This document shows positions 1,822 to 62,436 of a DNA stretch of 64,000 nt, piece after piece; position 1 is the first letter of the stretch, and the number at the start of each line of letters is the position of its first letter. The translations under genes and the position numbers were made by a program. Source of the stretch: an uncultured Candidatus Saccharibacteria bacterium. Lineage in GTDB: Bacteria > Patescibacteriota > Minisyncoccia > Phycocordibacterales > SBAW01. Under the pieces are notes generated by a model. The model was given only the letters and a program-made list of their open reading frames with translations, was not told the origin of the DNA and made no database searches. The stretch is from assembly GCA_964566795.1 (NCBI GenBank), contig CAZMIU010000001.1, positions 399,797 to 463,796 of the forward strand. Reading direction: 5' to 3'.

Positions 1822-1849
1822 TCTAGGGGTCCTATAGTTAAATCCCCAA

Positions 1850-1870
1850 TGCAGAAGGGCACCTTCTGCA
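1850..1870. repeat. REP palindrome copy 1
   Basis: tgcagaagggcaccttctgca; a 9-bp stem with a 3-nt loop. Confidence 0.7.
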
Positions 1871-1881
1871 GAACATTCCGT

Positions 1882-2526
1882 TTAGTCGAGTAGAAGTTCC
1901 TCCAACTCCTTTTTGCCCTTTATAACCTCAAAGGTTTCCTCAACGTATTCACGATATGCGGCAGGATTTTGAAATTGTTCTAGTACTACCTCCCTCTCGC
2001 AGAAGGGCACCTTCTGCAAATCTATATAATCGAGATAGCTGCTATGGGGATATTTTGACAGGTTATCTACCAGACCAGCAGCTTGAGGATTCTGATGCAC
2101 ATATGCACTTAACCATAAAAGTTGCTCGTTTGATTCTACTCGAACTGATTTGAATTGATCTTGGAACACTGACCCTACTCGCTTATATACTTTATTGAAA
2201 TATTTAGAGTATCCACTAATCAAGCTGAGCATAAGCGCACTAACCGGCACATCGCCGTTCTGGCGTATGACAAGGTGGAAATGGTTTGGCATAAGGCAGT
2301 AGCAGACCAAAGAGAAGGAGCCCGGCGGGAAAGTTTTTCTGACATACCGCTCTTTTCCATCTGCAGTAGGTGCACTTTTGTCATCGGGAAAGAGATACTC
2401 TTTTAGGCGAGAAAGGAAGAAAGCATAGTCAGCCTGAGTACGGAAAATATCCATCTTGGCATTGCCGCGATTGAATACATGATAATACTCGCCGGGCGCA
2501 AAGGATTTATAATCCCTATTTTTCAT
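1882..2526 (-). CDS. REP-associated tyrosine transposase (IS200/Y1_Tnp-like, HUH motif LMPNHFHLV)
   Basis: Motifs YHVFNRGN, CYCLMPNHFHLVI and a later conserved Tyr. The start is taken at MKNRDYKSF (2526); the longer ORF start at 2562 only translates the upstream REP. The C-terminal part reads through the REP copy at 1999-2021. Confidence 0.7.
   Translation of the reverse strand: MKNRDYKSFAPGEYYHVFNRGNAKMDIFRTQADYAFFLSRLKEYLFPDDKSAPTADGKERYVRKTFPPGSFSLVCYCLMPNHFHLVIRQNGDVPVSALMLSLISGYSKYFNKVYKRVGSVFQDQFKSVRVESNEQLLWLSAYVHQNPQAAGLVDNLSKYPHSSYLDYIDLQKVPFCEREVVLEQFQNPAAYREYVEETFEVIKGKKELEELLLD
1999..2021. repeat. REP palindrome copy 2 (inside the 3' end of the transposase ORF)
   Basis: cgcagaagggcaccttctgcaaa. 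Confidence 0.7.
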
Positions 2527-2539
2527 AGGGACCACTCTA

Positions 2540-2562
2540 TTGCAGAAGGTGCCCTTCTGCAA
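2540..2562. repeat. REP palindrome copy 3 (inverted orientation)
   Basis: ttgcagaaggtgcccttctgcaa. Confidence 0.7.
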
Positions 2563-2583
2563 TACCCACCAAAAATCTCCAAG

Positions 2584-2943
2584 CTATCTCTTGCTCAAAA
2601 TAAGCGGAGTCAGGAAATACGCCAACACCGGGAGCCCTGCTACCGCTGCAACACTATGGAGTCCGTCGTAGGTCAGCACGAGCCCAAGCAGCCCGAACGC
2701 CGCATATAAAATGACAAACTTGCGCGGGAGACCCTGTTTATCGTAGAGCTTCTTCCTAAACAAGTAGAGCGTCGCGCAGAACGACGCACTAAAGATTGTA
2801 AACAGGAGCAGGAGGTCAAAAACAGACCACGGCCCGGACGGGATGTTGGTGATAAGAGGAACGAGTGCAAAGACAGCCACCAAGTGGAGCATATTCTGCA
2901 CTGCTCCTATGCCTAGTAGCTTCCACAGGCTGTCCCTTTTCAC
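2584..2943 (-). CDS. Small polytopic membrane protein, hypothetical (about 4 TM)
   Basis: 119 aa, hydrophobic; its start overlaps the pilT stop (2943/2945). Confidence 0.45.
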   Translation of the reverse strand: MKRDSLWKLLGIGAVQNMLHLVAVFALVPLITNIPSGPWSVFDLLLLFTIFSASFCATLYLFRKKLYDKQGLPRKFVILYAAFGLLGLVLTYDGLHSVAAVAGLPVLAYFLTPLILSKR

Positions 2944-2944
2944 A

Positions 2945-4006
2945 TTAGATAAGCCTCTGCAGGACGTTGGGGTTAAGAGAGCGCGAGTAGGCAGACTCGA
3001 CCGATATCTCTCCGGCGCGTACCAAGTCGGCCAGAGAGCGGTTCATGTCTATCATACCGTCCTGGGCACCCGTCTCGATTACAGTCTGTATCTCGTGAGT
3101 GCGCTTCTCGCGTATCAGGTTTTGCACAGCCGGGTTGTTTATCAGGAGCTCGCACGCCGGTATAAGCCCGCCCGAGATGCGCGGCACCAGGCGCTGGCTA
3201 AAGATGCCTGCCAAAGAGCCTGCAAGCTGTACGCGTATCTGGTCCTGCTGGTTTGCGGGGAACGTGTCTATAATGCGGTCGATAGTCTGGGCTGCGTTGT
3301 TGGTGTGCAATGTAGAAAAGACAAGGTGGCCTGTCTCGGCCGCGGTAACTGCGGCAGCCATGGTTTGCGGGTCGCGCATCTCGCCTATCATAAGCACGTC
3401 AATATCCTGTCTGAACACGCTCGTGAGCGCCTGCGCAAAGTCGGAGGTGTCCACACGCACCTCGCGCTGCTCCACCAAAGACTTTTTGCTCTCAAACAGA
3501 TACTCGATAGGGTCCTCGATTGTCACTATGTGCTCGGCACGCTCCTGGTTGATCTTCTCAATGAGCGCGGCAAGCGTTGTTGTCTTGCCCTGCCCCACCG
3601 GCCCCACCACCAAAAAGAACCCCTGCTCGCGCCCCGCAAAGCTCTCGAGTATGGGCGGCAGGTTAAGCTCGGCCGTGGTGCGTATCTGGCGCGGTATCAG
3701 GCGCAGCGCCATGCCCATGCGGCCGCGCTCAAAGTAGGCATTGCCCCTAAAGCGCGTTTTGTCGGTATGCGCATAGCTAAAGTCTGCCTCCTGTGTCTTT
3801 AAAAACAGCACCTTGCGCTCACCGGGCAAAAGCTCGGTAATTAGCCCCATCAGATCGTCAGGGGTCAGCGCAGTTTCTGTAAGAATCGGTGTCAATGAGC
3901 CCGATACGCGGATGATGGGCTGCGAGCCTACGGATAGGTGCAGGTCGGATGCACCCTGCGCTATGACAATCTCTATCAGTTGTACGAGTTTTTGCTTGTA
4001 GTCCAT
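2945..4006 (-). CDS. pilT: Twitching-motility (retraction) ATPase PilT
   Basis: 353 aa, Walker A GPVGQGKTTTL, and the PilT/PilU family length and motifs. Confidence 0.9.
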   Translation of the reverse strand: MDYKQKLVQLIEIVIAQGASDLHLSVGSQPIIRVSGSLTPILTETALTPDDLMGLITELLPGERKVLFLKTQEADFSYAHTDKTRFRGNAYFERGRMGMALRLIPRQIRTTAELNLPPILESFAGREQGFFLVVGPVGQGKTTTLAALIEKINQERAEHIVTIEDPIEYLFESKKSLVEQREVRVDTSDFAQALTSVFRQDIDVLMIGEMRDPQTMAAAVTAAETGHLVFSTLHTNNAAQTIDRIIDTFPANQQDQIRVQLAGSLAGIFSQRLVPRISGGLIPACELLINNPAVQNLIREKRTHEIQTVIETGAQDGMIDMNRSLADLVRAGEISVESAYSRSLNPNVLQRLI

Positions 4007-4032
4007 ATCTACTTGTTGGGAGTTGTGTCGAA

Positions 4033-5904
4033 CTAGACTTCTACATCAGGCTCCTTGGCGGGCACTATGGGTGCGCTTGTCTCCTCGCCGCTCTCGGTCA
4101 TGGCAACAGGGCTTGGCGCCGCGGCCGCCTTAACATCTTCGGCAAGATCAAACTCGCCGCCAAGCGTGTTAACCTCCTCAAACGGGACAATGCCTTTGGC
4201 TGATTTGATGATAGCATCCTCTTTCATCGTGAGCATGCCCTGCTTGCGGACAATCGCAAATATTTCCTCCTCCGACTTGCCCGCCAGGATGGCGCGCTCA
4301 AGCTCCGGGGTCATGTCAAACACCTCAAAGCACGCAATGCGGCCGTGGGTGCCCGACGGGCAATCGGCTGTGGGCTCGAGCTTGTACACCTCATTAAGGC
4401 TCGGGATATCCTTTTTGTGCTCCTCGGGCACATCGGCAAACTCGTCCTCGAGCATCTTGCGCGTAGAGTCGTCTACCGCCACCTTTTTGCCGCCGCCCTC
4501 GCATAGTGTCTGCACCAGACGCTGTGCCACGCCCAATATAAGCACGGGCGGGATAAGATAGGGCTCCACACCCATATCAAGCAGGCGCGGCACAATGCCC
4601 ACGGCGTTGTTGGTGTGGATGGTCGAGAGCACCAGGTGGCCGGTAAGCGCGGCCTGCACCGCCAGGTTGGCAGTCTCTGAGTCGCGGATCTCACCCACCA
4701 TGATGATGTTCGGGTCCTGGCGCAGCGTGGTTCTCAGTCCGTTGGCAAACGTGTAGCCAATCTCGGGGCGCACCTGGCTCTGGGATACTCCGGGGATCAC
4801 ATACTCGACCGGGTCCTCCAGCGAGAGTACGTTAAAGCGCTCGCGGTCAATCTCGTTAAGAAGGGTGTACAGCGTGGTCGACTTACCCGAGCCTGTGGGG
4901 CCCGAGATAAGGATGAGTCCGTAGGGCTTTTTTATCGCGGCCTTAATGAGCTCGAGGTTGCGCGGAGTAAGCCCCACGCCGTCAAGCTTCCAGTCTTTTG
5001 TCTGCACGCCCAAGATACGCATCACCACCTTCTCGCCGTAATAGGTCGGGAATGTCGACACGCGGAAGTCTACTTTAGTACCGGAGACTCTCGCGCTAAA
5101 GCGGCCGTCCTGCGGTTTGCGCTTCTCGTCCAGCCTCATGTTGGACATAACCTTGATGCGCGCGACTACCGAGCCGTGCACCTTGGGCGGGAGCGTTATG
5201 TTGGTGATAAGCACGCCGTCGATACGGAACCGCACGCGCGTCTGGTCTACAAGCGGTTCTATATGGATGTCGGATGCGCGTTCCTCAGTGGCATGGCGCA
5301 GTATGGTAGACACGATTTTTGTAACCGGCGCGTCCTCGGTCATCGCCGAGTCCGAGGTCTCTGTCACCAGCTCGTCGTCGAGCACGTTCTTGTGCTGCTT
5401 GTCACCCTTTTTCTCCTGCTCGCGGGTGCGGGCCATAGTCTCGGTCTCGAGCTCGCCCAGCGCCTTGCCCACCTCGCCCGAGAGTCCCTTGTACTGGGCA
5501 AGCAGTTTCTCAAAGTCGGTCTCAGATATCAAAAACAGCTTGTAGGGCATGCCCACCTTGCTCGAGATAAACGTAAGCGCATCGCGCGCCTCAAGGTTGT
5601 CCGGGTCTACAATGCCAACCTCCAAAACGCCGTCCTTAATAGCCAGCGGCACCAGCTTGTAATGGCGCGCAGACTCCTCGGGCACATACTGCAAAATATC
5701 AAACGGCACGGCAGCCTCGCCCATCTCGCGCGTAGGCACGCCGTAGTAGTCGCCCTTAACCCGCAGGAGGTCGGCAGGCTTTACGCCGGCCTTGGTAAGT
5801 TCAAACTCGGGCTTGGCATCCGGCTTCTGGAGCAACACCTCAAGCTCGGGTATCTGTCCCCGCTCTATAAGGCGCGCATCAGCCAAGAGCTCTAACAGGT
5901 TCAT
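4033..5904 (-). CDS. pilB: Type IV pilus assembly ATPase PilB (GspE family) with a T2SSE N-terminal domain
   Basis: 623 aa, Walker A GPTGSGKSTTL, an N-terminal GspE_N-like domain, and an acidic C-terminal tail. Confidence 0.9.
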   Translation of the reverse strand: MNLLELLADARLIERGQIPELEVLLQKPDAKPEFELTKAGVKPADLLRVKGDYYGVPTREMGEAAVPFDILQYVPEESARHYKLVPLAIKDGVLEVGIVDPDNLEARDALTFISSKVGMPYKLFLISETDFEKLLAQYKGLSGEVGKALGELETETMARTREQEKKGDKQHKNVLDDELVTETSDSAMTEDAPVTKIVSTILRHATEERASDIHIEPLVDQTRVRFRIDGVLITNITLPPKVHGSVVARIKVMSNMRLDEKRKPQDGRFSARVSGTKVDFRVSTFPTYYGEKVVMRILGVQTKDWKLDGVGLTPRNLELIKAAIKKPYGLILISGPTGSGKSTTLYTLLNEIDRERFNVLSLEDPVEYVIPGVSQSQVRPEIGYTFANGLRTTLRQDPNIIMVGEIRDSETANLAVQAALTGHLVLSTIHTNNAVGIVPRLLDMGVEPYLIPPVLILGVAQRLVQTLCEGGGKKVAVDDSTRKMLEDEFADVPEEHKKDIPSLNEVYKLEPTADCPSGTHGRIACFEVFDMTPELERAILAGKSEEEIFAIVRKQGMLTMKEDAIIKSAKGIVPFEEVNTLGGEFDLAEDVKAAAAPSPVAMTESGEETSAPIVPAKEPDVEV

Positions 5905-5961
5905 TGTATACAGTATACGCCCGCGCAGCGCGTGGTGCTTGCGACTATCAACAAAACAAAC

Positions 5962-6321
5962 TTACTGCGCAGGCGTTGTAGACGCGGTTCTCTGCGTTGA
6001 GCTCGCGGTCTGGGTCGGGGTCGGGCCATTTTGCCCTACCGGGGCAAACGGGTTGCGGCGGCCGGCAGCAGCAGGCGGTATAGAGACGCCAAAGTCCGAC
6101 AGCGATATAAACAGCGGATCGCTAAAGATAGAGTTGTCGAGCTTGATAGTACGCAGGTTGCCCAAGGTAGCCAAAATCTCCTGCGATACCGGGAGCTCGC
6201 TGTCCTGCGAGCTGGTCAAGAGCTCGCCGCTCCCGCTGGACATAAAGAAGTAGTACAAAAGGCCGGCGACAACCACGAGTACGCCTATAAGGACCATGTT
6301 CTTTTTAATGAGAGCCATCAT
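5962..6321 (-). CDS. Small single-TM pilus assembly-associated protein (PilP-like position)
   Basis: The internal start MMALIKKNMVLIGVLVVVAGLLYY (6321) sits 2 nt after the pilO stop. One TM segment followed by a Thr/Ser/Pro-rich tail. The ORF's N-terminal 50 aa (to 6471) overlap pilO and were rejected. Confidence 0.5.
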   Translation of the reverse strand: MMALIKKNMVLIGVLVVVAGLLYYFFMSSGSGELLTSSQDSELPVSQEILATLGNLRTIKLDNSIFSDPLFISLSDFGVSIPPAAAGRRNPFAPVGQNGPTPTQTASSTQRTASTTPAQ

Positions 6322-6322
6322 A

Positions 6323-6871
6323 TTAGTGGAGCCAGTAGGTGCGGATAGTAAAGTTAAAGGTATATTTGCCTGCTGTAGCCGCGCCAAAGGACAACTTTTG
6401 TATATCGAGGATGCGCAGGCTGTGCTCGAGGTCCTGCAGGAATGCCAGGAAGTCCTCATAGCTGGCGACAACGGAGAACCCGAGGTTGACCGAGCCGATA
6501 CGGTCGCCGGTTGGGCCTATGGCAATGCCGCTTGAGTCGGTCGAGGAGCGCGACACCTCTCCTAAGGCCACATCCGAGAGTGCCAGGCCGCGGCGCGCCG
6601 CTATGCTGTTGATGTCTATAATAAGTCGGATATTGTCTACCTGGTCTGGCACGAGGCGTGTGAGCTTCTGCTCATCCTGCGGGCTAAACGCGTTGCGGGC
6701 AGACTGCAGCTTGTCGCGCAGCGACTTAAGTTCCTGCGACTTGTCGAGCGCGTCGTCGTAGGCGCTTACCTTTGCCTGCGCGCCCTTAAGCCCCTGGTAG
6801 GTCGGGTTGGTGTACATGACAAAGAGCCCGATGGCTGCCAGCACGAGGACAAGTGGGAAAGCTAGTCGCAT
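6323..6871 (-). CDS. pilO: Type IV pilus assembly protein PilO
   Basis: 182 aa with an N-terminal TM segment, a coiled-coil and a C-terminal domain, in the pilM-N-O order. Confidence 0.75.
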   Translation of the reverse strand: MRLAFPLVLVLAAIGLFVMYTNPTYQGLKGAQAKVSAYDDALDKSQELKSLRDKLQSARNAFSPQDEQKLTRLVPDQVDNIRLIIDINSIAARRGLALSDVALGEVSRSSTDSSGIAIGPTGDRIGSVNLGFSVVASYEDFLAFLQDLEHSLRILDIQKLSFGAATAGKYTFNFTIRTYWLH

Positions 6872-6874
6872 ACG

Positions 6875-7465
6875 TTATTGTGGGATGCCGGTGCCGGCCT
6901 GCTTTGCATAATTGAGCACGGACGGGTCTACGCTCGCGCTTACGGAAAATTGCACGCGGCCCGTGATGTCAGTCGAGATACCCGAGAACACGACGTCTCT
7001 GAGCACTTTGGCCGCGCCAAACTCGTCTGACTGCAACGCGAGCGACGAGAATGAGTCCGCAACGCCTGTCATCGAGAGCTTGCCGGAGCCCTCTGAGCCA
7101 ATGTCGAGGTTAAGCGAGGTAAACTGCACCCGCTCGAGCGTTGCCGCAGAGAGGAAGGTAAACAGCCCAGAGGGTGCCGTATGGTTTTGTATCAGCTCGC
7201 GCGCCTCAGTAAGCCTGATATCGAGCCTCTCGAGGTCGCGGATAGAGCTGGTGTCAAAAGCGCCCTCGGCAGCCTTAAGCGATTTGTCCTTTGAGATGAG
7301 CGCGCTGTCGAGGTATGTCTTGTAGGCAAATGCGGCGCCAGCCGACGCAATAGAGCCGACAAATATCAAAACAGCGATGAGGCTCAAAAGCCCTCCGCCT
7401 GCGCCGCGCGGCTCGCCCACGAGCGGCTTCTTTGGGATAAACGATTGTTGCACCTGTGGGTCCAT
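6875..7465 (-). CDS. pilN: Type IV pilus assembly protein PilN
   Basis: 196 aa, single TM (LLSLIAVLIFVGSIASAGAAFAY), downstream of pilM. Confidence 0.75.
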   Translation of the reverse strand: MDPQVQQSFIPKKPLVGEPRGAGGGLLSLIAVLIFVGSIASAGAAFAYKTYLDSALISKDKSLKAAEGAFDTSSIRDLERLDIRLTEARELIQNHTAPSGLFTFLSAATLERVQFTSLNLDIGSEGSGKLSMTGVADSFSSLALQSDEFGAAKVLRDVVFSGISTDITGRVQFSVSASVDPSVLNYAKQAGTGIPQ

Positions 7466-7519
7466 GTATGTATTCAGTATAAGGCCGCAATTTTTGCGCA
7501 GCCTTTCATATCAACACGA

Positions 7520-8608
7520 CTAGCCCAACTCCTGCAGTCGCCTGAGCGCCAGACCCACAGCCACAGCAAACTCCGGGCCCGCCTCTTTGAGTATTGTTTC
7601 GAGAAATGCGGGCGCCTGAGTCTTTCCAAACGGGTCTGCCATACGTATCTCGTTTTGCACCTTGCCCTGCATGTACTCCTTAAGGCCCTTGAGAGTCGCT
7701 CCCCCGCCGGTTAAGACCAGCGCCGAGAGCGCCTGGTTGTGCGACTGCTCCCACGAGGCCGCGGTGCGCGCTATCTCTGAGGCAATGGGACCCAAAGAAA
7801 GCTCGAGCGATTGCTTGATCGAGTTCTCGGGTGTGGCAACCAGCCCAAACTTGCGCTTGCGCTCCTCTGCCTGCGCGACTGTAATGGAAAGTGCGCGCGA
7901 TGCGGCGAGGGTCAGGTCTTGGCTGCCGTGGTTAATAATGTGGCTCTCGCGTATGAGCCCGCGCTCCACGACATAAAACTTGGTCGTGGCAGCGCCCATG
8001 TCTACAACCGCCACCGGTGCCAGCCCGTGGTCCAGGCTTGCGCGCACCGAGGAGAACACCTCAATCTCAAAAAAGCCCACATTAAGCTTGGCCTCGGTCG
8101 CCATCGAGCGGAACTTGGCTATCGTGTCGTTATGTATGGCAACCAGGAGCACCTCTATCTTGCCATCTGCGGCCGCGGCCTGTTTGCCGCCTGTCACTAC
8201 AAACCAGTCCAAAAGCACCTCATTGATAGGCACAGGGATATACTTGCGCGCCTCAATCGGCATTACCGAGGCGAGCTGGCTCTCCAAAGAGGCCTGGAGT
8301 TTGACCAGTGAGATTAAAGAAGAGGCATATGGTATAGATATGGCGGCGTCTTGGGTGGTGGTGTTGGCCTCCCTCAGTACGTCCTTAAGCGCTTCTGTGA
8401 TTTTCTCCGCTGGCAGCGAGGTGGCGCGGCCTATCTCTACCCCGGCATAGGGGCCCAGAGCTATGGCGCCATAGGTCTCGAGGACCACGCGGCCGTGTTC
8501 ACGCCTGAGCTGCACCACCTTGATGCTCGAGGTACCAATGTCTATCCCCAGTACGCTTTGCGAGGGTTTTGAGAAGAGTCCAGAAAGGGATGGGAGCTGA
8601 AACTCCAT
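7520..8608 (-). CDS. pilM: Type IV pilus assembly protein PilM (actin-like ATPase fold)
   Basis: GIDIGTSSIKVVQL N-terminal motif. The start is chosen at MEFQLPSLSGLFSK by similarity to known PilM N-termini; the alternative start is 8629. Confidence 0.85.
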   Translation of the reverse strand: MEFQLPSLSGLFSKPSQSVLGIDIGTSSIKVVQLRREHGRVVLETYGAIALGPYAGVEIGRATSLPAEKITEALKDVLREANTTTQDAAISIPYASSLISLVKLQASLESQLASVMPIEARKYIPVPINEVLLDWFVVTGGKQAAAADGKIEVLLVAIHNDTIAKFRSMATEAKLNVGFFEIEVFSSVRASLDHGLAPVAVVDMGAATTKFYVVERGLIRESHIINHGSQDLTLAASRALSITVAQAEERKRKFGLVATPENSIKQSLELSLGPIASEIARTAASWEQSHNQALSALVLTGGGATLKGLKEYMQGKVQNEIRMADPFGKTQAPAFLETILKEAGPEFAVAVGLALRRLQELG

Positions 8609-8632
8609 ATACACCAAAGTATATACCATTAT

Positions 8633-53200: not shown

Positions 53201-54394
53201 TTACGCGATTATCTTTGTGACAACGCCTGCACCTACGGTCTTGCCGCCCTCGCGGACTGCAAAGCGGGTCTTGTCCTCGAGTGCCACAGGCGCTACGAGC
53301 TTGACCTTAAAGGTAATGGTGTCGCCCGGCATAACCATCTCAGTACCAGCAGGCAAGGTTACCTCGCCGGTTACGTCCGTAGTGCGGACGTAGAACTGGG
53401 GCTTGTAGCCGGTGAAGAACGGCGTGTGGCGGCCACCCTCCTCCTTGGTGAGGATGTATACCTCGGCCTCAAACTCGGTGTGCGGGGTTACGGAACCCGG
53501 CTTAGCCAAGACCTGGCCGCGGTGGATGTCATCCTTGGCGGTACCGCGCAGGAGGATGCCTGCGTTGTCGCCTGCCTGGCCCTGGTCGAGCTGCTTGTTG
53601 AACATCTCGATACCGGTAACGGTGGTCTTAGTGGTTGGCTGGAGACCTACAATCTCGATATCCTCGCCTACCTTGAGCACGCCGCGCTCGATGCGGCCTG
53701 TCACTACAGTGCCGCGACCCTCGATAGAGAAGATGTCCTCTACCGGCATAAGGAACGGCTTGTCGAGCTCGCGGACCGGGTCTGGGAAGAAGCTGTCCAT
53801 GGTGTTAACGAGCTCCAATACCTTCTGAGACCACTCGTTGCTCAAGTCATTAGACTCGAGCGCCTTGAGGCCGGAACCCTTGATAACCGGAGAACCCTCG
53901 TAGCCCTGCTTGGCCAAAAGCTCCTTGATCTCCTCCTCGACGAGGTCCAAGAGATCCTTGTCCTCAACCATGTCGCACTTGTTGAGGAAGACGATGAGTT
54001 TCGGCACGCCAACCTGGCGGGCCAAGAGCACGTGCTCGCGGGTCTGGGGCATAAGGCCGTCAGTTGCCGCAACTACAAGCACTGCGCCGTCCATCTGGGC
54101 AGCACCGGTGATCATGTTCTTGATGTAGTCGGCGTGACCCGGAGCGTCGATGTGTGCGTAGTGACGCTTAGGGGTCTCGTACTCCGAGTGGTGGAGCGCG
54201 ATGGTGATACCGCGAGCCTTCTCCTCCGGAGCGTTGTCGATACCGTCAACGGCCTCGACGCGTGCGCCGTAACCCTGGCTCTTTGCCATGTCGAGCGTGT
54301 GGAGGATCGACGCGGTGAGCGTAGTCTTGCCGTGGTCAACGTGACCGATGGTGCCCACGTTCATGTGGGGCTTAGACCTTTCGAAATTTGCCAT
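53201..54394 (-). CDS. tuf: Elongation factor Tu
   Basis: [10 protein letters not shown] and DCPGHADY motifs. Confidence 0.98.
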
Positions 54395-54479
54395 AAATAA
54401 AACTAACTAATTAATAACAACTTATATACACAGCGCACTCCAAAAGCACAGGAAAGTAGCCCCATGTGCATTGCGGTTC

Positions 54480-54508
54480 AATATATAGCAGAAGGTACAC
54501 AGGTGCAA
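54480..54508 (-). promoter_or_regulatory. Candidate sigma-70 promoter for tuf (-35 TTGCAC, 17-nt spacer, -10 TATATT)
   Basis: On the minus strand the -35 is at 54503-54508 and the -10 at 54480-54485, about 85 nt upstream of the tuf ATG. Confidence 0.3.
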
Positions 54509-54557
54509 GCCCCGCAATGGTGCCTGCGGGGCGCACCGCTTATGTATTACTTATGTA

Positions 54558-56591
54558 TTAATAGAGTCCGGCCTGGAAGAGGAACTCGGAGAAGGCGTCT
54601 ACTATCATGTAGACCGGGGCCATCTCAACCGCTGCAAGCGCATCGGTCACTTTGCTCATGGTCTCGTAGAAACTTATAGGCAGGTATGGGAGCGCTGCCG
54701 TCAGCTCAGAGACAGGCACCATGGAGGTTGAGCCGGGCACGGTCACCGTCTTGGTGATTACCGGGGTCGGCGACGCGCATACCGCAGTCGCAGGGCATGA
54801 GGTTGGAGGGAGCACCTTGATGGTGTAGGTGCCGGCTGTTTTGTACGGATAGCTGCGGGTAAATACCGGCTGGCAGCTGCCGATACCTATGGGGATATTG
54901 GCACTAACGCCGTCACCATAGTCGAGCGTATAGGTCTTACCATCGCAGCCCTGGCCCGTGCTGCCCTGGATACTTACCCAAAGCGAGCCAGCAGAGGTTG
55001 CCACCGTGAGTGTGGGCTGTGTTACCGAGGTACCGCCTGTCGAGTCGCTGGGCTTTGAGGGATTAAGGTACACAAAGCCGGAGTCGAGCACGTCGCCCGC
55101 CTCGTTGAGTATCGCCACGCTGTAGGTACCCTGGGTAAAGGTGCGCGTGGTGGTGTGTGACCAGCGGCCACTTGTGACCGCGATAGCCGGCGAGTTGTAG
55201 ACAGTCGCCAAATCTTTCAGCATCGTGATGTAGATTTTTGAGATTGTAGCTGAGCCGCCAAAGGTTATCTTGCCGGTGCTGTCTGTTGAGGTAGTGTCGC
55301 GCGATACCTGCCTCTCCTGTGAGTTGCGGTCCATAACCTGCATAGAGAACACCGCGTTGCTCAGGCCCTGGGAGAGCACCGTACCGTCTGCCTTGTAGGC
55401 CACAACCTTGGCCTGGTACTTGTTGCCGGCGGGCACGCGTGCATACCCGCGGGTTGTTGAGTCCTGATTGCTGGTGCCTACGTTTACGCAGTTGTTGGTT
55501 TCAGGCAAAGGATATGAAACGCCTGATGAACCGTTGTAAAGGAAGGAGCATGCGTACGAGCCGGCAGGCATCTTGTAGTTGCGCCACCCAATAAGCATGC
55601 TGGTGCCAAAGTGGCCGTCGCGCGTAATGTCGTACGGACCTTTGCTATTTTTAGGGTACGTTACAACAACTGTCGGGACTGTATATACGGGCTCAGAAGA
55701 CGAATTATCCTCCTCCCCCTCATCTTCGTCCTCATCCTGGTCATTGCTGCAGGATGCGGTGTTCGAGTTGTCATTGCGGTTGCACTCTAAGCTTGCAGCC
55801 AGAACATTAACTGTCTTGAATGCCACCATCTCACCCTTGGCGCCATCTTTATGCAACGCTGCGACATAGGTACCCGGGGTCGAGTAGGTGTGGGTCGCGT
55901 TCACTTCCCCATATCCGCTGATTGAACCGTCGCCAAAGCTGATGTAGGCACCCGCGCTAAGTGCAGAGCCACTGCCTTTAAACGAAACCGTAAGGGGTGC
56001 CTTGCCCGATGTGGGGCTGGCAGTAAAAGTGACTTCACTCGTATTGCTGGAGGAATTCCCGATGATGAGAATGCCCTTAGCGAGAGCGACTTTGGATGCG
56101 TAATCAAATACTACTACCCTCATGGTAGCGGCGGCGTTGATACCAAATTGTGCAGACCAGCGGCCGTTTTTTACATCGGACTTCTCGATAAAGATGCCGT
56201 CCTTGCCGAGCTGGCCGGCAATGGTGTTGTAGTCCGTAATGGACGCGTAGGTCTCATAGTTTGTAGGCACGAGCACGACTGCGACTTTCTTGGTGTTAGC
56301 CGCGGTACCTGTGATATAAAACTTGCCCAAGCCAGTAGTGATCGACTCCTGGTCCAATGACGCACTGGATACGTTCGGATTGGTGGTGCCCGAACCGCCA
56401 CCGAGGACGGACTTAACCGTGTTGATGGTTGCCTGCGGCACATCAAACGCCTCGAGTAGGTTTATGACCGCGTTAATCTGCGCCGAGGTCAGCTGCCCTG
56501 CCGCCCGCGCCGGTTGTGCGCTTACGGCAACAAGTACGAGCGAGATGATAAGGGCGGCGAGGAGTGAGCGGATGGAGCGTGCAGCAGTCAT
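54558..56591 (-). CDS. Secreted multi-domain protein with PKD domain(s), an acidic linker and an N-terminal module shared with the next gene
   Basis: Signal MTAARSIRSLLAALIISLVLVAVSAQPARA. The PKD-like block is EVTFTASPTSGKAPLTVSFKGSGS..ISFGDGSISGYGEVNATHTYSTPGTYVAAL. The acidic stretch is DQDEDEDEGEEDNSS. Confidence 0.6.
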   Translation of the reverse strand: MTAARSIRSLLAALIISLVLVAVSAQPARAAGQLTSAQINAVINLLEAFDVPQATINTVKSVLGGGSGTTNPNVSSASLDQESITTGLGKFYITGTAANTKKVAVVLVPTNYETYASITDYNTIAGQLGKDGIFIEKSDVKNGRWSAQFGINAAATMRVVVFDYASKVALAKGILIIGNSSSNTSEVTFTASPTSGKAPLTVSFKGSGSALSAGAYISFGDGSISGYGEVNATHTYSTPGTYVAALHKDGAKGEMVAFKTVNVLAASLECNRNDNSNTASCSNDQDEDEDEGEEDNSSSEPVYTVPTVVVTYPKNSKGPYDITRDGHFGTSMLIGWRNYKMPAGSYACSFLYNGSSGVSYPLPETNNCVNVGTSNQDSTTRGYARVPAGNKYQAKVVAYKADGTVLSQGLSNAVFSMQVMDRNSQERQVSRDTTSTDSTGKITFGGSATISKIYITMLKDLATVYNSPAIAVTSGRWSHTTTRTFTQGTYSVAILNEAGDVLDSGFVYLNPSKPSDSTGGTSVTQPTLTVATSAGSLWVSIQGSTGQGCDGKTYTLDYGDGVSANIPIGIGSCQPVFTRSYPYKTAGTYTIKVLPPTSCPATAVCASPTPVITKTVTVPGSTSMVPVSELTAALPYLPISFYETMSKVTDALAAVEMAPVYMIVDAFSEFLFQAGLY

Positions 56592-56609
56592 ACGAGTTAC
56601 AAATTGAAA

Positions 56610-58163
56610 TTAAAATCCAAATAATGCGGCATAGGCCGAGAGCACGCCAGCGAGCGACCAGTTTATCTCTATGATCTGGTCTGCAACAATGTTTATAGAT
56701 GCAGTCATAGACTCCATCGGGATCATGGCGGCGGCGGCCATCATCTGGCCTCCGTCAAACAGTGCCGACGAGATGCCAAAATTGCGCGGCCATGAGGTTA
56801 TCGACTGCAGGTTGATGCCCGCAGCATCGAGCTGCGATTGCATGCTAGAGAGATCTGCCTTGCTAAACCCAAAGTTGGTTATGTGCTTGAGGAGCACGTC
56901 CGGGTTGGCTGCCGATGTAAGCTGGTAGCCGTTTGCATCTACAAGCGCGAGCACGTAGTTGACGCCGACACCCGGGAGTATCTCCTTGTAGAAGGTAAAG
57001 TTGCCCGCGTGCGCAAGTACCGTGGTGTTGGCGCGGTCTGCCGGGCGGGTGGCGCCCGATGCCAGGTAGGCGGTGGAGCCGCTATTGTACATGGCACTGG
57101 TAAGTGCGCGCGCCGTTGCGAGCGGATTTGCGGAGGACATTATGACGCCCCAATCGCGCATGTCGACGTTGGACCCTATGACGCCGTAGAGCATGCTCGA
57201 GGCGATAGACGCGTCGGTCTTGGCCGCGGCGGCAAACTGCGCCGTGTTGGGCTTGGACGCAGACATGCTGTTTGTACCTGTGTTGGTAGTTGTGTTGGTG
57301 TTTGTGTTCGTCTCAGTTGTGGTCTCGGTCTGTGTTGCCGGCATCTCGCCGCCGGTGGTGATGAGACCCGGTATAAAACCGCGGGGCCACGAAGTTGCCG
57401 ATTGAAGGTTGATACCCTTTCCATCAAGCTGGGCCTGGAGCACAGCCAACTCTGCCTTGTTAAACCCAAAGTTTAGGACCAGCTTCTGGAGCGTGTCGGA
57501 GTTGGCTGCCGATGTAAGCTGGTAGCCGTTCTTGTCTACAAGCGCGAGCACGTAGTTGATGATGCTGCCCGGCAAGATTTCCTTGTAGAGCGTAAAGTTG
57601 CCATAGCTGGCAAGCACTGAGGTGTTGGCGCGGTCCTGGGGGCGGGTGGCGCCCGATGCCAAATATGCCTTAGAGCCGCTGTTGTACATTGCCGCAGTTG
57701 CCGCACGGGCGGCAGCAAGCGGGTTAGACGACGCCATGATGGCCGTCCAGTCGCGCACATCCAGGTTGGACCCTATGACGCCGTAGAGCATGCTCGAGGC
57801 GGTAGACGCGTCGGTCTTGGCCGCGGCGGCAAACTGCGCCGTGTTGGGCTTGGACGATGAGATTGTCTGGCTTTGCTGTGTCTGCGTGCTCGCCGGAGTT
57901 TCTGGCTCTACGGACGGTGCCACAGGCATCGTCGCTGCAGGAGCGGTGCCGCCGTTTAAAATGGTTTTGACGTTGGCGATGGTTGCCGCATCAACGCCGA
58001 AGGCGGACAAAAGCCCTATAACGCCGCTTACCTGGGTTGAGGTAAGCCCGGCCGCCTGGGCGGGGGTCGGGGTTACCACAAGAGCGAGGGTGAGCACAAA
58101 CATGACAACGCCTACAACCAGGTGTAGTGCGATGGAGCGGAGGGCTATAGGGCGGGCGTGCAT
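56610..58163 (-). CDS. Secreted protein with a perfect ~200-aa internal tandem duplication and the shared N-terminal module
   Basis: Signal, then AGLTSTQVSGVIGLLSAFGVDAATIANVKTILNGG. The unit SKPNTAQFAAAAKTDAS..LYGVIGSN.D.RDW..IM.S.NPLA.AR..T.AMYNSGS.AYLASGATRP.DRANT.VLA..GNFT.YKEILPG...NYVLALVD.NGYQLTSAAN.D.L repeats twice. Confidence 0.55.
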   Translation of the reverse strand: MHARPIALRSIALHLVVGVVMFVLTLALVVTPTPAQAAGLTSTQVSGVIGLLSAFGVDAATIANVKTILNGGTAPAATMPVAPSVEPETPASTQTQQSQTISSSKPNTAQFAAAAKTDASTASSMLYGVIGSNLDVRDWTAIMASSNPLAAARAATAAMYNSGSKAYLASGATRPQDRANTSVLASYGNFTLYKEILPGSIINYVLALVDKNGYQLTSAANSDTLQKLVLNFGFNKAELAVLQAQLDGKGINLQSATSWPRGFIPGLITTGGEMPATQTETTTETNTNTNTTTNTGTNSMSASKPNTAQFAAAAKTDASIASSMLYGVIGSNVDMRDWGVIMSSANPLATARALTSAMYNSGSTAYLASGATRPADRANTTVLAHAGNFTFYKEILPGVGVNYVLALVDANGYQLTSAANPDVLLKHITNFGFSKADLSSMQSQLDAAGINLQSITSWPRNFGISSALFDGGQMMAAAAMIPMESMTASINIVADQIIEINWSLAGVLSAYAALFGF

Positions 58164-58325
58164 AGGGACTAGTTATTTCTAAAAACGTATAAGTGGCTGC
58201 AGAACAAGCAGGAGCGGAGCGACAAAACAAGAAAGGGCCCCAACGCAAATGCGTTGGTGCCCTGTATGAGACTCAGTATAGTCCCTCTTGCCTACCCCAC
58301 AAGTAGGGGGTGTGTATAAGTGTCG

Positions 58326-59465
58326 TTAATCCTCGATGGTAAAGAGGTGGCTCTTGTCATCGTCCAGCCTCTCGCCGGTGCCATTGTCGTCCTCGTACAG
58401 GCTCGCCTTGATGTAGTACTCGCCGTCAAGGTCATAGCCGCACAAGCCGTTAGGGTACTGGAGGGTGCAGTAGTCGCCCTTCTCAGGCACATCCCACTCA
58501 TACTCCTCCTCATCGGCATCAACGATGGCTATAGTGCCAACGCGGTCGTCGTCCTCGTCATAAAGCTCCAGGACCACGGAGGCGTCGTTAGGCTCGTCGG
58601 TGACATTCCACTCGATATCAAGGTCATCGCCCTGCTCTACCTCGACATTGGAAGAGGGCGAGGTTACGTCTATAGTGCCGTCCTCATCGTTGTCGTTATC
58701 ATTGTCGTCATCGTCCTCAGTCACGCGGAAGGTGGCCTCATCGCGGTCAAGCTCCTTAACCTCAATGTTCCAGTCGCGGAAGTTGACGTCGTCACCGTCT
58801 TCAAGGATATACGACTGCGAGGGAGCATAGAAGCAGTAGGTGCCCGCCCTGCAGCCTTCGGTTACCGTAATGCGCACGGCCTGGGGCTCCTGATTGTAGT
58901 AATAGCCATAGCCGTACTGGCTCATAACCACCTGGTTAAGCGTGATAGTGAGGTCTTCATTGCGCAGCTCGCCTGTCTCGCCCACATCAAGAGAGAAGTC
59001 ACGGTCAAGACGGAAGGTCGTGGTGCGGGTAGTGGGGTTGGTCGGATAGCCCGGGTTATAGCTGCCGCCGCATACGCGTGCGATTGCCTGGCGGGTCAGA
59101 GGACCAACCCCGCCCGTTGCCGGGTATACGCCGTTTTCCTGCTGGAAGCGGGTCACGTAGTAGCTCGTGAGCTGGCCATAGTAGCCGCCCGTGAGGCGCG
59201 TGTCGCTATAGCGGGAGCGCAAAAAGTTCTGCAGTGAGCTTACCTGGCCGCCGGTGGTGTAGTCGCTGGAGCCCAGGGTGAGGTTGTAGCTCAGAGCCGG
59301 GCAGCCGTAGGAGGTACCACCATAGTACTGGTTGGTGTACTGCGGCTGGGTGTACTGCGGGTAGTAGTAGCTCGGGTTGTAGGTCTGAGCCATTGCCGGA
59401 GCGGCCACAAAGAGACCCGCGAGGGCTGCGAGGCCAAATACAAAGGTTTTCATACGATTTTGCAT
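58326..59465 (-). CDS. Secreted protein with a PG_binding_1 (peptidoglycan-binding) domain and a highly acidic C-terminal domain
   Basis: Signal MKTFVFGLAALAGLFVAAPAMA; a Tyr/Gln-rich stretch; GGQVSSLQNFLRS..GGYYGQLTSYYVTRFQQENGVYPATGGVGPLTRQAIA; D/E-rich blocks. Confidence 0.6.
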   Translation of the reverse strand: MQNRMKTFVFGLAALAGLFVAAPAMAQTYNPSYYYPQYTQPQYTNQYYGGTSYGCPALSYNLTLGSSDYTTGGQVSSLQNFLRSRYSDTRLTGGYYGQLTSYYVTRFQQENGVYPATGGVGPLTRQAIARVCGGSYNPGYPTNPTTRTTTFRLDRDFSLDVGETGELRNEDLTITLNQVVMSQYGYGYYYNQEPQAVRITVTEGCRAGTYCFYAPSQSYILEDGDDVNFRDWNIEVKELDRDEATFRVTEDDDDNDNDNDEDGTIDVTSPSSNVEVEQGDDLDIEWNVTDEPNDASVVLELYDEDDDRVGTIAIVDADEEEYEWDVPEKGDYCTLQYPNGLCGYDLDGEYYIKASLYEDDNGTGERLDDDKSHLFTIED

Positions 59466-59588
59466 TGATAAATAAGGCTAAAATGGGCCCTTGATAATTA
59501 GGTTCGCGCTTACAATACCACAAGACGCGCAAAGCGCAACTGTATTACAAAAGCCCGGGGTTTCCCCCGGGCTTTGTCGTGATGTGGC

Positions 59589-60221
59589 TCAATTGGGTCG
59601 GCCTGTTGCTTGTTCTGCCGAAGGAGGGGGCGTAAGTAGAGCATACCCCCGAAACACGCTCCTCGTGCACTCCTGCTCGGTAAGTGGGCGGCCAGCGTCG
59701 CAAGTATCTCCAATGATTGAGAATATCAGGGACATTGCCTTTGAACACTGGTTCATTGCATTACCCAGACTCTCCTTATATTCCTCGTCGCAAAGAGAGC
59801 TGTAAAAGACCGGAACGACATACTGCAGTACAGCAATCTTCTTGTCATACGCAGGGATGACATATCCAGCCAGAGTATCCTCGGCGCGCTCGAGCGCTTT
59901 TTTTATCGAGCGGTCGACCGTGCGCGAGAAAGCCTCAAATTTGGCATTCGTCAGAAACTTCTGCTGGTGCTGCATCCCGACTATGACTAATTCGTCGCTT
60001 AGTCTGTGCTCAATACGGGAGCAGAAGCTTGTTCCGTCGTTTGCTTTCATCAAAAACTCTATTCTCTGCGTCGACTCCCGGAGGATAGTGCAGACGTCAT
60101 TGTTTTCGATAAGACCTTGTCGGGCGACAGCTAGCGGGCGACTGGAAGTTCCTACCATGGCTCTGCCTTTCTTTTGTGACAACTTCTGTATCCATTCAAG
60201 CACCGGCACGCACAAATGCAA
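59589..60221 (-). CDS. Hypothetical cytoplasmic protein in a locally lower-GC segment
   Basis: 210-aa ORF with noticeably lower GC than its flanks; flanked by hairpin terminators. Confidence 0.4.
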   Translation of the reverse strand: MHLCVPVLEWIQKLSQKKGRAMVGTSSRPLAVARQGLIENNDVCTILRESTQRIEFLMKANDGTSFCSRIEHRLSDELVIVGMQHQQKFLTNAKFEAFSRTVDRSIKKALERAEDTLAGYVIPAYDKKIAVLQYVVPVFYSSLCDEEYKESLGNAMNQCSKAMSLIFSIIGDTCDAGRPLTEQECTRSVFRGYALLTPPPSAEQATGRPN

Positions 60222-60242
60222 GCCGGTTGTTATAACGAAAAA

Positions 60243-60272
60243 ACGCCGCCCCCGCGTGGGGCGGCGTTTTTC
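60243..60272. terminator. Bidirectional rho-independent terminator after fusA
   Basis: acgccgcccc-cgcgt-ggggcggcgttttt. Confidence 0.7.
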
Positions 60273-60285
60273 TTACGTCTTTGGA

Positions 60286-62436
60286 TTACTTGCGTGCGGC
60301 AACGATGGTTGCGGCTACCTGCGGAGGCACCACCTCGTAGTGGTCGAACTCCATGGTAAACGACGCGCGGCCCTCAGACATTGAGCGCAGCGCTGTAGTG
60401 TAGCCGAACATCTCCGAAAGAGGCACCTTGGCACGGATTGCACGCGCGAGCCCGCGCTCCTCCATGCCCTCAATCTGGCCGCGCTTGGAGTTAAGGGAGC
60501 CGGTTACGTCACCCATGAACTTCTCGGGGGTAACGACCTCCACTTTCATAATCGGCTCCAGAAGTACAGGCTTTGCCTTGGTCATTGCATCCTGGAAGCC
60601 CATAGATGCGGCGATTTTAAAGGCAATCTCGGATGAGTCCACATCGTGGTAGGAACCGTCATAGAGCTCGATGGAGATGTCGACCATCTTAAAGCCGGCA
60701 ACATAGCCGCGCTCCATAGCCTCGCGCACGCCGTCCTCTACCGGACCGATAAACTCGTTGGGGACCACGCCGCCCTTGATGTTGTTGATAAACTCGAAGT
60801 GGTCCTCGCGGGTAACGTTCTTAGCCTGCTTCTTGTCCTCGTTCACGGGCTCAAGCGGCTTTACGCGCAGGCGCACATGGCCGTACTGGCCCTTGCCGCC
60901 TGTCTGCTTGATGTACTTGCCCTCGCCCTCTGCCGGTGCCTGGATAGTCTCGCGGTAGGCAACCTGGGGCTTGCCGGTGTTGGCCTCGACGCCAAACTCG
61001 CGCTTCATGCGGTCTACCAAGATCTCGAGGTGGAGCTCACCCATGCCCGAGATTAGGGTCTCGTTGGTCTCGGTATCGGTGGTCACACGGAAGGTTGGGT
61101 CCTCGTCTGCAAGCTTCTTCATGGCCATACCCATCTTCTCCTGGTCGGCCTTGGTCTTGGGCTCGATGCGCATCGAGATAACCGGCTCGGGTACGGTAAT
61201 GCCCTCGAGGATAATGGGGTTGGTCTCGTCTGAGAGCGTGTGGCCGGTCTTAGCCGACTTCAGCCCCACGGCTGCGGCAATCTCGCCTGCAAACACCTTT
61301 TTTACCTCTTCGCGCTTGTCTGCCTGGAGGCGCACGATGCGGCCCAGGCGCTCCTTCTCACCCGTGGAAGAGTTGATGATGTAGGAACCTGCCTCCACAA
61401 CGCCCGAGTACACACGGAAGAATGTCAGCTGGCCCACAAACGGGTCTGCCTGGAGCTTAAAGGCGAGCGCGGAGAACGGCTCGTCGTCTGCGGCCTGGCG
61501 CATGATAGGGTCGCCGGTCTTGGGGTTGGTGCCGGTGATTGGCGGCATGTCTACCGGTGAGGGTAGGTAGTCGACAACAGCGTCAAGCACCAATTGCACG
61601 CCGCGGTTCTTGAGTGCCGAGCCGGTGTATACGGGGAAAATCTTGTTGTTGATGACTGCTTTGCGGAGGGTCTTTTTGAGATCCTCAAGCGACGGCTCCT
61701 TGCCGTCGAGGTATGCGGTCATGAGGTCATCGTCGTTCTCAACGATCTTCTCGATAAGCTCTGCGCGGTACTTCTTGGCATCCTCGAGCATGTCTGCCGG
61801 GATGTCGTAGGTAGACACGATCTCACCCATGGCGCCCTCAAACTTGTAGGCCTTCATGGTAAGGAGGTCGACAACGCCGTCGAACTCGGCCTCAGCACCA
61901 ATGGGGAGCTGCATGCGCACTGCGCGCGGGGTAAGGCGGTCGAGGATGGAGGCGTACGACTTCTCAAACGATGCACCCATGCGGTCCATCTTGTTTATAA
62001 AGCAGATGCGCGGCACGTTGGCCTCGTCTGCATAGCGCCAGTTGGTCTCAGACTGTGGCTCTACACCGGCAACGCCGTCAAACACCACTACTGCGCCGTC
62101 GAGCACGCGCATGGAGCGCTTAACCTCTACGGTAAAGTCGATGTGGCCGGGGGTGTCGATAACGTTGAAGCGGAATTTCTTGGATGCGTCCTTTTTGTCC
62201 GGCTCGTCGGTCTTGGACCAGAAGCAGGTGATAGCCGCCGCGGTAATGGTGATGCCGCGCTCGCGCTCCTGCTCCATCCAGTCAGTCGTGGTCTGGCCGT
62301 CGTGCACCTCGCCTATCTTGTGCTGGGAACCGGTGTAGTACAGCACGCGCTCAGACGTGGTGGTCTTGCCGGCATCGATATGGGCGATGATGCCAAAGTT
62401 GCGGATCTTCTCGAGCGGGTAATCTCTAGTGGGCAT
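60286..62436 (-). CDS. fusA: Elongation factor G
   Basis: Start at [27 protein letters not shown] (716 aa). The ORF-track entry extends a further 300 aa upstream through an open frame and was trimmed. Confidence 0.97.

Follow-up and report, generated by a model that had tools for sequence, protein, structure and literature searches.

A predicted helical hairpin at the mature N-terminus of secreted Patescibacteria proteins, a candidate docking element of a wall-anchoring cassette

Two neighbouring genes in a 64,000-nucleotide stretch of an uncultured Candidatus Saccharibacteria bacterium (contig CAZMIU010000001.1, positions 399,797 to 463,796; the whole stretch is called the window here, and coordinates are those of the window unless a metagenome locus, L, is named) encode secreted proteins that start, after their signal peptides, with much the same segment of about 35 residues. 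The question raised by this locus is what such a segment does on the proteins A (54558–56591) and B (56610–58163), and how it relates to C, the product of the neighbouring gene. Our answer, which we favour tentatively and at a little under an even chance, is that the segment is an extracytoplasmic hairpin of the Candidate Phyla Radiation (CPR) that would act as an accessory self-associating or docking element of a wall-anchoring cassette. Its conservation, spread, position, predicted fold and adjacency to the wall-binding domain PG_binding_1 are shown below; the cleavage site, the self-association and the anchoring are what we infer. On the cell surface, the hairpin probably helps to hold or assemble proteins.

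The shared segment comprises residues 30–66 of A (AAGQLTSAQINAVINLLEAFDVPQATINTVKSVLGGG, 56394–56504) and residues 37–72 of B (AAGLTSTQVSGVIGLLSAFGVDAATIANVKTILNGG, 57948–58055), directly after an AXA signal-peptidase site, and 20–22 of its 36 residues are identical. When A was compared with B by BLASTP, significance was owed solely to this N-terminal stretch. Searches with either copy against the six-frame translation of the window (tblastn) recovered the other at E ~1e-8 and the next best match at E 0.04–0.1, so that exactly two copies are present in the 64 kb, and the hidden Markov model (HMM) of the family scored the A copy at E 3e-16 and the B copy at E 9e-18. The homology of the mature N-termini, claimed in a first-pass annotation of this DNA, was thus confirmed, whereas the coordinates that it gave for the module (56591 and 56610) are those of the junction between the stop of B, 18 bp upstream of A, and the start of A. 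The two copies share 58% of their DNA sequence, compared with 61% of their amino acids, and are identical at 13 of 36 third codon positions; with third positions near saturation, this points to an old duplication in which the peptide was maintained by purifying selection. Both signal peptides have a basic n-region and a hydrophobic core of about 15 residues, followed by ARA↓AG in A and AQA↓AG in B. According to the −3/−1 rule, cleavage would take place at ARA↓AGQLT and AQA↓AGLT, one residue later than the first-pass annotation had placed it, whose statement that the module lies directly after the signal peptide holds.

A profile of 40 positions, made from eight copies of this lineage and run against 1.84 billion representative proteins (50% identity clusters), matched 1092 protein clusters at E ≤ 1e-3, 39 of them at E ≤ 1e-10. 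Cluster members carried the names “hypothetical protein” (Candidatus Paceibacterota; Patescibacteria group bacterium) or, in Joint Genome Institute (JGI) records, [quoted passage not shown]. When one genome per GTDB species was scanned with a pattern, the five loci recovered all belonged to Patescibacteria, of different classes: two Saccharibacteria metagenome-assembled genomes (MAGs), a Ryanbacteria, a Sungbacteria and one unclassified. The named sources of module proteins were likewise all Patescibacteria/CPR. A DNA pattern restricted to the core (Q-I-x-A-I-x-x-L-L-x-S-F-G-A-D) supplied an independent metagenome sample, with matches in at least 120 contigs. In viral contigs, the module was found neither by peptide patterns nor by a DNA pattern. 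As a working definition, we took the family to comprise secreted proteins with the pattern L-T-x-x-Q-[IV]-x-[AS]-[IV]-x-x-L-L-x-[SA]-F-[GND]-[AV]-x-x-x-[TV]-[IV]-x-x-[V]-x-x-x-L-x-G (family HMM) and a signal peptide upstream, and both window copies fall within it.

This spread bears on the simplest explanation of the pair, that of a local partial gene duplication without wider meaning, which the first-pass annotation had tied to the motif occurring in these two paralogues alone. Some local duplication is indeed visible: a single gene at locus L001, encoding P0006, unites A and B parts, so that the locus has been reshuffled and signal peptide and module have been duplicated locally. As a full account it is refuted by the 1092 clusters, the several CPR classes and the metagenome loci, and the saturated synonymous sites between the A and B copies also speak against it.

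No match to the module was present in Pfam (2025 copy), NCBIfam (release 20) or the PDB sequences, isolated module segments found no Pfam family even at E ≤ 10, and none of the papers in the library searched contained the motif strings. Scanning A and B with NCBIfam gave nothing relevant: a weak match between the PKD region of A and PamR, a pilus protein of CPR, reached 17 bits where the cut-off is 300 (E 0.002) and has no bearing on the module. By direct reading, A and B show no lipobox, LPXTG or type IV pilin signal, and no Cys is found at the cleavage regions ARA↓AGQ and AQA↓AGL. The first-pass opinion that no known motif applies, dockerin included, therefore stands, and the module is apparently an undescribed and uncurated extracytoplasmic domain specific to CPR/Patescibacteria.

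An alignment of 213 copies showed a module of about 33–36 residues with the consensus A-[AS]-[GS]-L-T-x-x-Q-[IV]-x-[AS]-[IV]-[LI]-x-L-L-x-[SA]-F-G-[AV]-D-x-x-T-I-x-N-V-x-x-x-L-x-G-G, the most constant positions being L4 (97%), Q8 (99%), L15 and L16 (95 and 93%), F19 (93%), and L33 (99%). For a 50-copy alignment with the A copy first, AlphaFold (predicted local distance difference test, pLDDT, 90.4) placed helices at positions 7–19 and 24–34 of the 37-mer, separated by a turn of four residues (F-G/D-A/V-D/P). The module is thus predicted to be a helix-turn-helix hairpin with hydrophobic residues between the helices; the first-pass description of a conserved helical module was borne out by this model and by the alignment. 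For a tandem pair of modules, a compact four-helix unit was predicted (predicted TM-score, pTM, 0.77). The form L4-T5-x-x-Q8-I9 is that of a helix capping box with a hydrophobic staple, which explains both the invariant Gln (Q8) and the sole apparent matches in the PDB, to transcription activator-like (TAL) effectors, whose repeats start with LTPEQVVAIA. The remaining conserved positions are hydrophobic, with a/d/e/g-type spacing on helix 1, and the conserved pattern as a whole would suit a packing surface better than a ligand pocket. Fold searches with the module returned nothing specific.

Strongly hydrophobic helix faces right after a signal peptide could also belong to an amphipathic hairpin resting on the outside of the cytoplasmic membrane, to which it would tether the mature N-terminus. 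However, the predicted hairpin is closed, with those residues between its helices, the tandem pairs are predicted as soluble units, and copies are found hundreds of residues into large extracellular proteins; a membrane tether is accordingly very unlikely in our opinion.

The first copy of the module begins by residue 45 in 125 of 148 best representatives. In the core-pattern metagenome sample, it starts by residue 50 of the longest open reading frame (ORF) in 106 of 122 cases and has a hydrophobic run upstream in 111 of 114. The residues before L-T read A(-5)-x-A(-3)-A(-2)-[ASG](-1), an AXA site that leaves two residues ahead of the module, so that the family-wide junction is A-x-A↓A-[ASG]-L-T, and about 85% of carriers have one copy, 2–3 residues from the predicted cleavage site. 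Regarding architecture, a single N-terminal copy only was found in 111 proteins, an N-terminal copy plus an internal pair in 9, an N-terminal copy plus a C-terminal pair in 3, pairs alone in 6, and an N-terminal copy plus two pairs in 4, besides a few others; the internal and C-terminal copies are mostly tandem pairs. In addition, there are free-standing genes that consist of a signal peptide and a module: one of 74 aa (L001, 7611–7835; mature peptide AALTEPQIQAILNLLAAFNVPQAEIDNVEGILHQSK), in the same fusA–tuf locus as in the window, and another at L003 (1961–2224); in these relatives the gene lies just downstream of fusA. These internal, C-terminal and free-standing copies indicate that the module is an autonomous domain.

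They also bear on the proposal of an N-terminal sorting or processing tag, which a dedicated factor would read once Sec export is complete, or which would be needed for efficient signal-peptide cleavage or for retention. Such a tag would agree with the helix N-cap lying 3–4 residues from the predicted new N-terminus in about 85% of carriers, and with the conservation of signal peptide and module as one unit in the window lineage. Against it stand the internal, C-terminal and tandem copies, the module-only mini-proteins and the genomic surroundings: among 132 immediate neighbour genes there was no consistent partner family (a transketolase, found 11 times, reflects lineage synteny) and nothing sortase- or peptidase-like was enriched, while no NCBIfam sorting-signal model matched A or B. 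The co-occurring partner gene that the first-pass annotation suggested looking for was thus absent from the immediate neighbourhood, dedicated sorting machinery is not indicated, and a strict sorting signal is the less likely for it; we rate this role as quite improbable. From the original idea of an anchoring or docking tag, what falls is the strictly N-terminal location, whereas the anchoring or docking part is consistent with the near-obligate company of PG_binding_1 described below.

Among 130 carriers scanned with Pfam, PG_binding_1 was the most frequent domain (69), followed by PKD (15), Kre9_KNH (13), TIG (11), and other immunoglobulin (Ig)-like domains. With an HMM trained on the peptidoglycan (PG)-binding domains of module carriers, a PG_binding-like domain was detected in 95 of 150 carriers, and in the metagenome sample it lay right downstream of the hairpin in 101 of the 103 carriers with room for one. 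The two are joined by a Thr/Ser/Gly/Pro-rich linker; the median distance to the aligned domain start is 26 residues, about half of which already belong to the N-terminal strand of the PG-binding domain. PG_binding domains are found just after internal single copies as well (P0084, P0104, P0038). Thus, the usual cassette comprises a signal peptide, the hairpin, a short linker, a PG_binding_1 domain and a variable cargo. Neither Pfam nor the trained HMM detected PG_binding_1 in A or B, which therefore fall outside the canonical cassette as atypical members of the family, and the domain is found on gene C instead. In a recurrent class of about 1170 aa (range about 1100–1280 aa), the cassette precedes a beta-rich part of great length; such proteins of about 1100–1250 aa made up 17 of the 71 complete carriers, with L004–L006 in addition. 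Members of this class, a candidate for a major surface protein or S-layer-like protein in CPR of the Paceibacteria type, were seen at L004, L005, L006, L008, L015, L019, L020, L026 and L033, among others, often beside genes for transketolase subunits.

The main alternative to docking arises from this adjacency: the hairpin itself might bind the wall, through peptidoglycan or a secondary wall polymer, as a second site beside PG_binding_1 and as the sole wall anchor in A and B. The position of the PG_binding-like domain directly downstream, after internal single copies as well as N-terminal ones, is what would be expected from it, A and B have no other anchor recognisable by Pfam, and multi-module wall anchors (LysM, SLH, CWB2) are the rule in monoderm bacteria. 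On the other hand, the sequence of the module is unrelated to PG_binding_1 and to all wall-binding families of Pfam; when 213 modules were aligned with the 101 PG_binding-like domains of the same proteins, the idea of a shortened PG_binding_1 was rejected (hhalign probability 0.5%). Helix capping would account for the conserved polar residues, leaving no obvious ligand site, a hairpin of 35 residues is small for a glycan-binding site, and tandem pairs far from PG-binding domains, together with the flexible linker, point to an autonomous unit. We regard direct wall binding as unlikely on balance, yet as the strongest of the alternatives.

Self-association or docking is favoured here because a lone hairpin of 35 residues, with such hydrophobic spacing on helix 1, is unlikely to be stable or functional by itself, and because the copies away from the N-terminus are mostly paired into a predicted bundle. 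As an element of protein–protein association, two hairpins would pack into a four-helix bundle, in cis within tandem pairs and in trans between single N-terminal copies. Such pairing could double the valency of weak PG-binding domains or, alternatively, dock proteins without a PG-binding domain, such as A and B, onto wall-bound partners. A and B, with no PG-binding domain, a hairpin-less C next door and conserved C-terminal tails, would be the kind of protein that depends on docking, and may be held at the envelope together with the PG-binding protein C, possibly via those tails.

Several points weigh against this reading. The compactness of the tandem pair is itself a prediction, gauged by pTM and pLDDT only, and association in trans of single N-terminal copies would be an extrapolation from the pairs in cis. 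The near-obligate adjacency of PG_binding_1 fits an accessory role in direct wall binding equally well. No protein with both module and PG_binding_1 that could serve as docking partner is encoded within the 64-kb window, where C has the domain and not the module. In addition, the 40-position profile held three signal-peptide residues, which slightly favours N-terminal copies, although the core-only DNA pattern gave the same positional bias, and the apparent restriction to CPR draws on few named records and on pattern-limited scans. A bolder version, in which docking would be self-complementary and CPR-wide, with hairpins paired in trans, cargo such as A and B sitting on hairpin plus PG_binding_1 proteins, and mini-proteins of 36 residues acting as caps or competitors that regulate assembly, seems to us improbable.

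The features of A, B and C are collected in Table 1. Within A, the PKD/PKD_4 region (aa 187–254) was the sole Pfam match, and B had none. Orthologues of A (P0169, P0029, P0170–P0172) and homologues of B (P0002–P0007) were found, as well as a third paralogue class (P0090/P0173, 755 aa) which has the signal peptide, the module and the A-type tail in common with A.

Table 1. Secreted-protein genes of the window and their features (window coordinates).
Feature	Coordinates	Strand	Description and basis
Gene A	54558..56591	minus	ORF, secreted, 677 aa; signal peptide, hairpin module, Ig/PKD-rich middle, conserved C-terminal tail
Predicted Sec signal peptide of A	56502..56591	minus	aa 1-30; n-region R5/R8, hydrophobic core, A28-R29-A30 motif; read from sequence
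Hairpin module of A (predicted)	56394..56501	minus	mature aa 31-66, AGQLTSAQINAVINLLEAFDVPQATINTVKSVLGGG; tblastn, family HMM, AlphaFold
A-type C-terminal tail	54561..54710	minus	aa 628-677, ...AAVEMAPVYMIVDAFSEFLFQAGLY-COOH; conserved in relatives
Gene B	56610..58163	minus	ORF, secreted, 517 aa; signal peptide, hairpin module, two ~170-aa repeats, B-type tail
Predicted Sec signal peptide of B	58053..58163	minus	aa 1-37; A35-Q36-A37 cleavage motif; read from sequence and family pattern
Hairpin module of B (predicted)	57948..58052	minus	mature aa 38-72, AGLTSTQVSGVIGLLSAFGVDAATIANVKTILNGG; tblastn and family HMM
B-type C-terminal tail	56613..56750	minus	aa 472-517, ...MMAAAAMIPMESMTASINIVADQIIEINWSLAGVLSAYAALFGF-COOH; conserved in relatives
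Gene C	58326..59465	minus	Secreted, 379 aa; PG_binding_1 at aa 72-128 (59082-59252, Pfam E 1.7e-6); Ig-like domain

The three genes lie in the str operon region, where the minus-strand order is fusA (60286-), a 210-aa ORF, C, B, A, tuf (53201–54394) and rpsJ, and a scan with the family HMM detected no hairpin in C. The order fusA, C, module protein, tuf is kept in L001 and L002: the former reads fusA, a 74-aa gene, a 197-aa gene, C, P0006, tuf, rpsJ, and the latter fusA, C, P0002. The protein P0006 (599 aa) is made of a signal peptide, the module, an Ig/PKD part, an acidic linker, one B repeat domain, the B-tail, an Ala/Pro linker and the A-tail, so this single gene unites parts split between A and B, and the window genes are also products of local modular reshuffling. 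Within the window lineage, the module belongs to a shuffled N-terminal cassette. Related metagenome contigs retain the placement of the secreted-protein genes C, B and A between fusA and tuf (window 53201–62400; L001 5360–13803; L002), a hint that they are co-expressed with the genes of translation, which are highly expressed. In the window, the fusA–C interval holds the 210-aa ORF alone (59589–60221), with no Pfam match, and no counterpart of the mini-protein. Two module-bearing genes were present at 6 of 116 metagenome loci (L022, L027, L037, L071, L088, L117), mostly adjacent as in the window, so that local paralogue clusters are not rare.

The C-terminal tails of A and B, of about 45 residues, are conserved as well. 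The A-type tail (...AAVEMAPVY..TDA.SE.LFQAGLY-COOH) is also found at the extreme C-terminus of the A orthologues, the paralogues P0090/P0173, the fused relatives P0005–P0007, and the further module carriers P0037, P0149, P0162, P0034 and P0075; more distant carriers, such as a Paceibacterota protein, end in it too. The B-type tail (...MMAAAAM.P...IN..ADQ..EIN..LA.V.SAY.ALFGF-COOH) is kept in P0002–P0007, P0037 and P0111. Both occur in one protein, B-type first and then A-type, in P0005–P0007 and P0037, the last of which (241 aa) consists of a signal peptide, the module, a Pro-rich linker and the two tails, with nothing more. The first-pass claim that the regions downstream of the module are unrelated is therefore right for the middle parts, whereas the distinct tails of A and B are fused in one protein in relatives. 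That the tails are related to each other was not supported (hhalign probability 4%). By direct reading, neither tail has an LPXTG motif or a basic end, the proteins finishing in ...FQAGLY and ...ALFGF. The A-type tail might anchor the protein in the membrane as an amphipathic element, or serve as a second site of interaction.

The tandem repeats of B, of about 170 aa each (56754–57263 and 57354–57860, minus strand), have no Pfam match and follow the pattern KPNTAQF..AAKTD..LYGVIGSN.D.RDW..IM.S..PL..ARA.T.AMY ... NGYQLTSAAN...NFGF.K..L...Q.QL...GIN. Homologues of the repeat are proteins of 285–361 aa from other metagenomic sources (P0008–P0017), without an N-terminal signal peptide by eye, and the repeat is an uncharacterised domain of wider distribution. 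Its C-terminal helix-loop-helix (..nFGF..QLd..G) was considered as a diverged module; it gave no family HMM match at E ≤ 0.01, and hhalign (E 0.03, probability 1.6%) did not support the idea.

Elsewhere in the window, a 1091-aa protein (11644–14919, minus strand) carries a type I dockerin domain at its C-terminus (Pfam E 1.9e-8), along with an MG2-like region and a repeated internal segment, LS[ST]FG[ST]LAADVWS..TRTLTGAG, at about 13090–13158, 13834–13902 and 14215–14283. A type IV pilus cluster typical of CPR episymbionts occupies 580–8629, with T2SSF/PilC at 580–1821, T2SSE/PilB at 4033–5904 and PilM at 7520–8629. Only 12 bp separate the genes for ribosomal proteins S5 and L15 (42764–43840), too little to hold a gene for L30; the absence of L30 is a CPR hallmark, and the arrangement fits a CPR/Patescibacteria genome.

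The CPR/Patescibacteria represent a very large, mostly uncultivated share of bacterial diversity and live attached to other cells, and the organisation of their envelope and surface proteins is poorly understood. One domain of 35 residues at the mature N-terminus of more than 1000 surface-protein families offers a handle on this organisation: it is a sequence signature for finding the CPR surface proteome, a small peptide that lends itself to assays of binding or oligomerisation, and a candidate family for Pfam/NCBIfam curation. If docking in trans were true, it would be a minimal analogue of cohesin–dockerin, organising the surface layer of ultrasmall episymbionts and perhaps also the surface through which they contact the host. 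For Paceibacteria that parasitise methanogens, highly expressed proteins with PG-binding domains were reported with no mention of such a module (PMC10936435). The families with the module include PG-binding proteins of this general kind, and those particular proteins may or may not carry it.

Among known systems, the closest companion of the hairpin is PG_binding_1 (PF01471), which is likewise small, all-helical and extracytoplasmic, lies near the N-terminus of secreted proteins and is physically coupled to the hairpin in most carriers. However, PG_binding_1 is a three-helix bundle of about 57 residues, compared with two predicted helices in 37 residues, the module has no Pfam match, a flexible linker separates the two, and the hairpin occurs without PG_binding_1 in A and B, so that it does not count as a member of that family. 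The TAL-effector repeat of 34 residues resembles the module in length class, in being a two-helix hairpin and in its start, LT-x-x-Q-[VI]-x-A-I. Nevertheless, it is an intracellular DNA reader arranged in long arrays, whereas module copies are single or paired and extracytoplasmic. A relation between them was rejected, as 11 residues (positions 4–14) and not a full-length repeat align (hhalign probability 19%, global 0.5%), and the E-values of the PDB matches are an artefact of summing about 15 sub-threshold partial repeat matches. The C-terminal homodimerisation domain of Get5 (PDB 3VEJ), of about 40 aa, has a helix-turn-helix topology and forms a four-helix bundle; it serves as an analogy only, since the Foldseek match is non-significant (E 8.3), there is no sequence relation, and Get5 is cytosolic and eukaryotic.

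Finally, in its proposed function, the hairpin can be compared with the dockerin–cohesin, SLH and CWB2 systems of monoderm bacteria, in which a short conserved terminal module is common to many otherwise unrelated secreted proteins of one organism, and with which it would share the non-covalent holding of cargo at the surface. The module lacks the Ca-binding D-x-D-x-D loops of dockerins, having one conserved Asp in its consensus, and no Dockerin_1 (PF00404) match was found in A, B or the modules; Dockerin_1 is present as a separate domain in 2 of 130 carriers. No SLH, CWB2 or LysM match was obtained with Pfam in A and B (E ≤ 1) or in the modules (E ≤ 10), nor are these among the top 25 families of the 130 carriers. 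In contrast to dockerin, for which cohesin is the partner, no cohesin-like partner was identified, and the proposed partner of a hairpin would be a second copy of the hairpin. No new principle is involved, as monoderm bacteria are well known to use small modules at protein termini for anchoring or docking; what is new here is the family.

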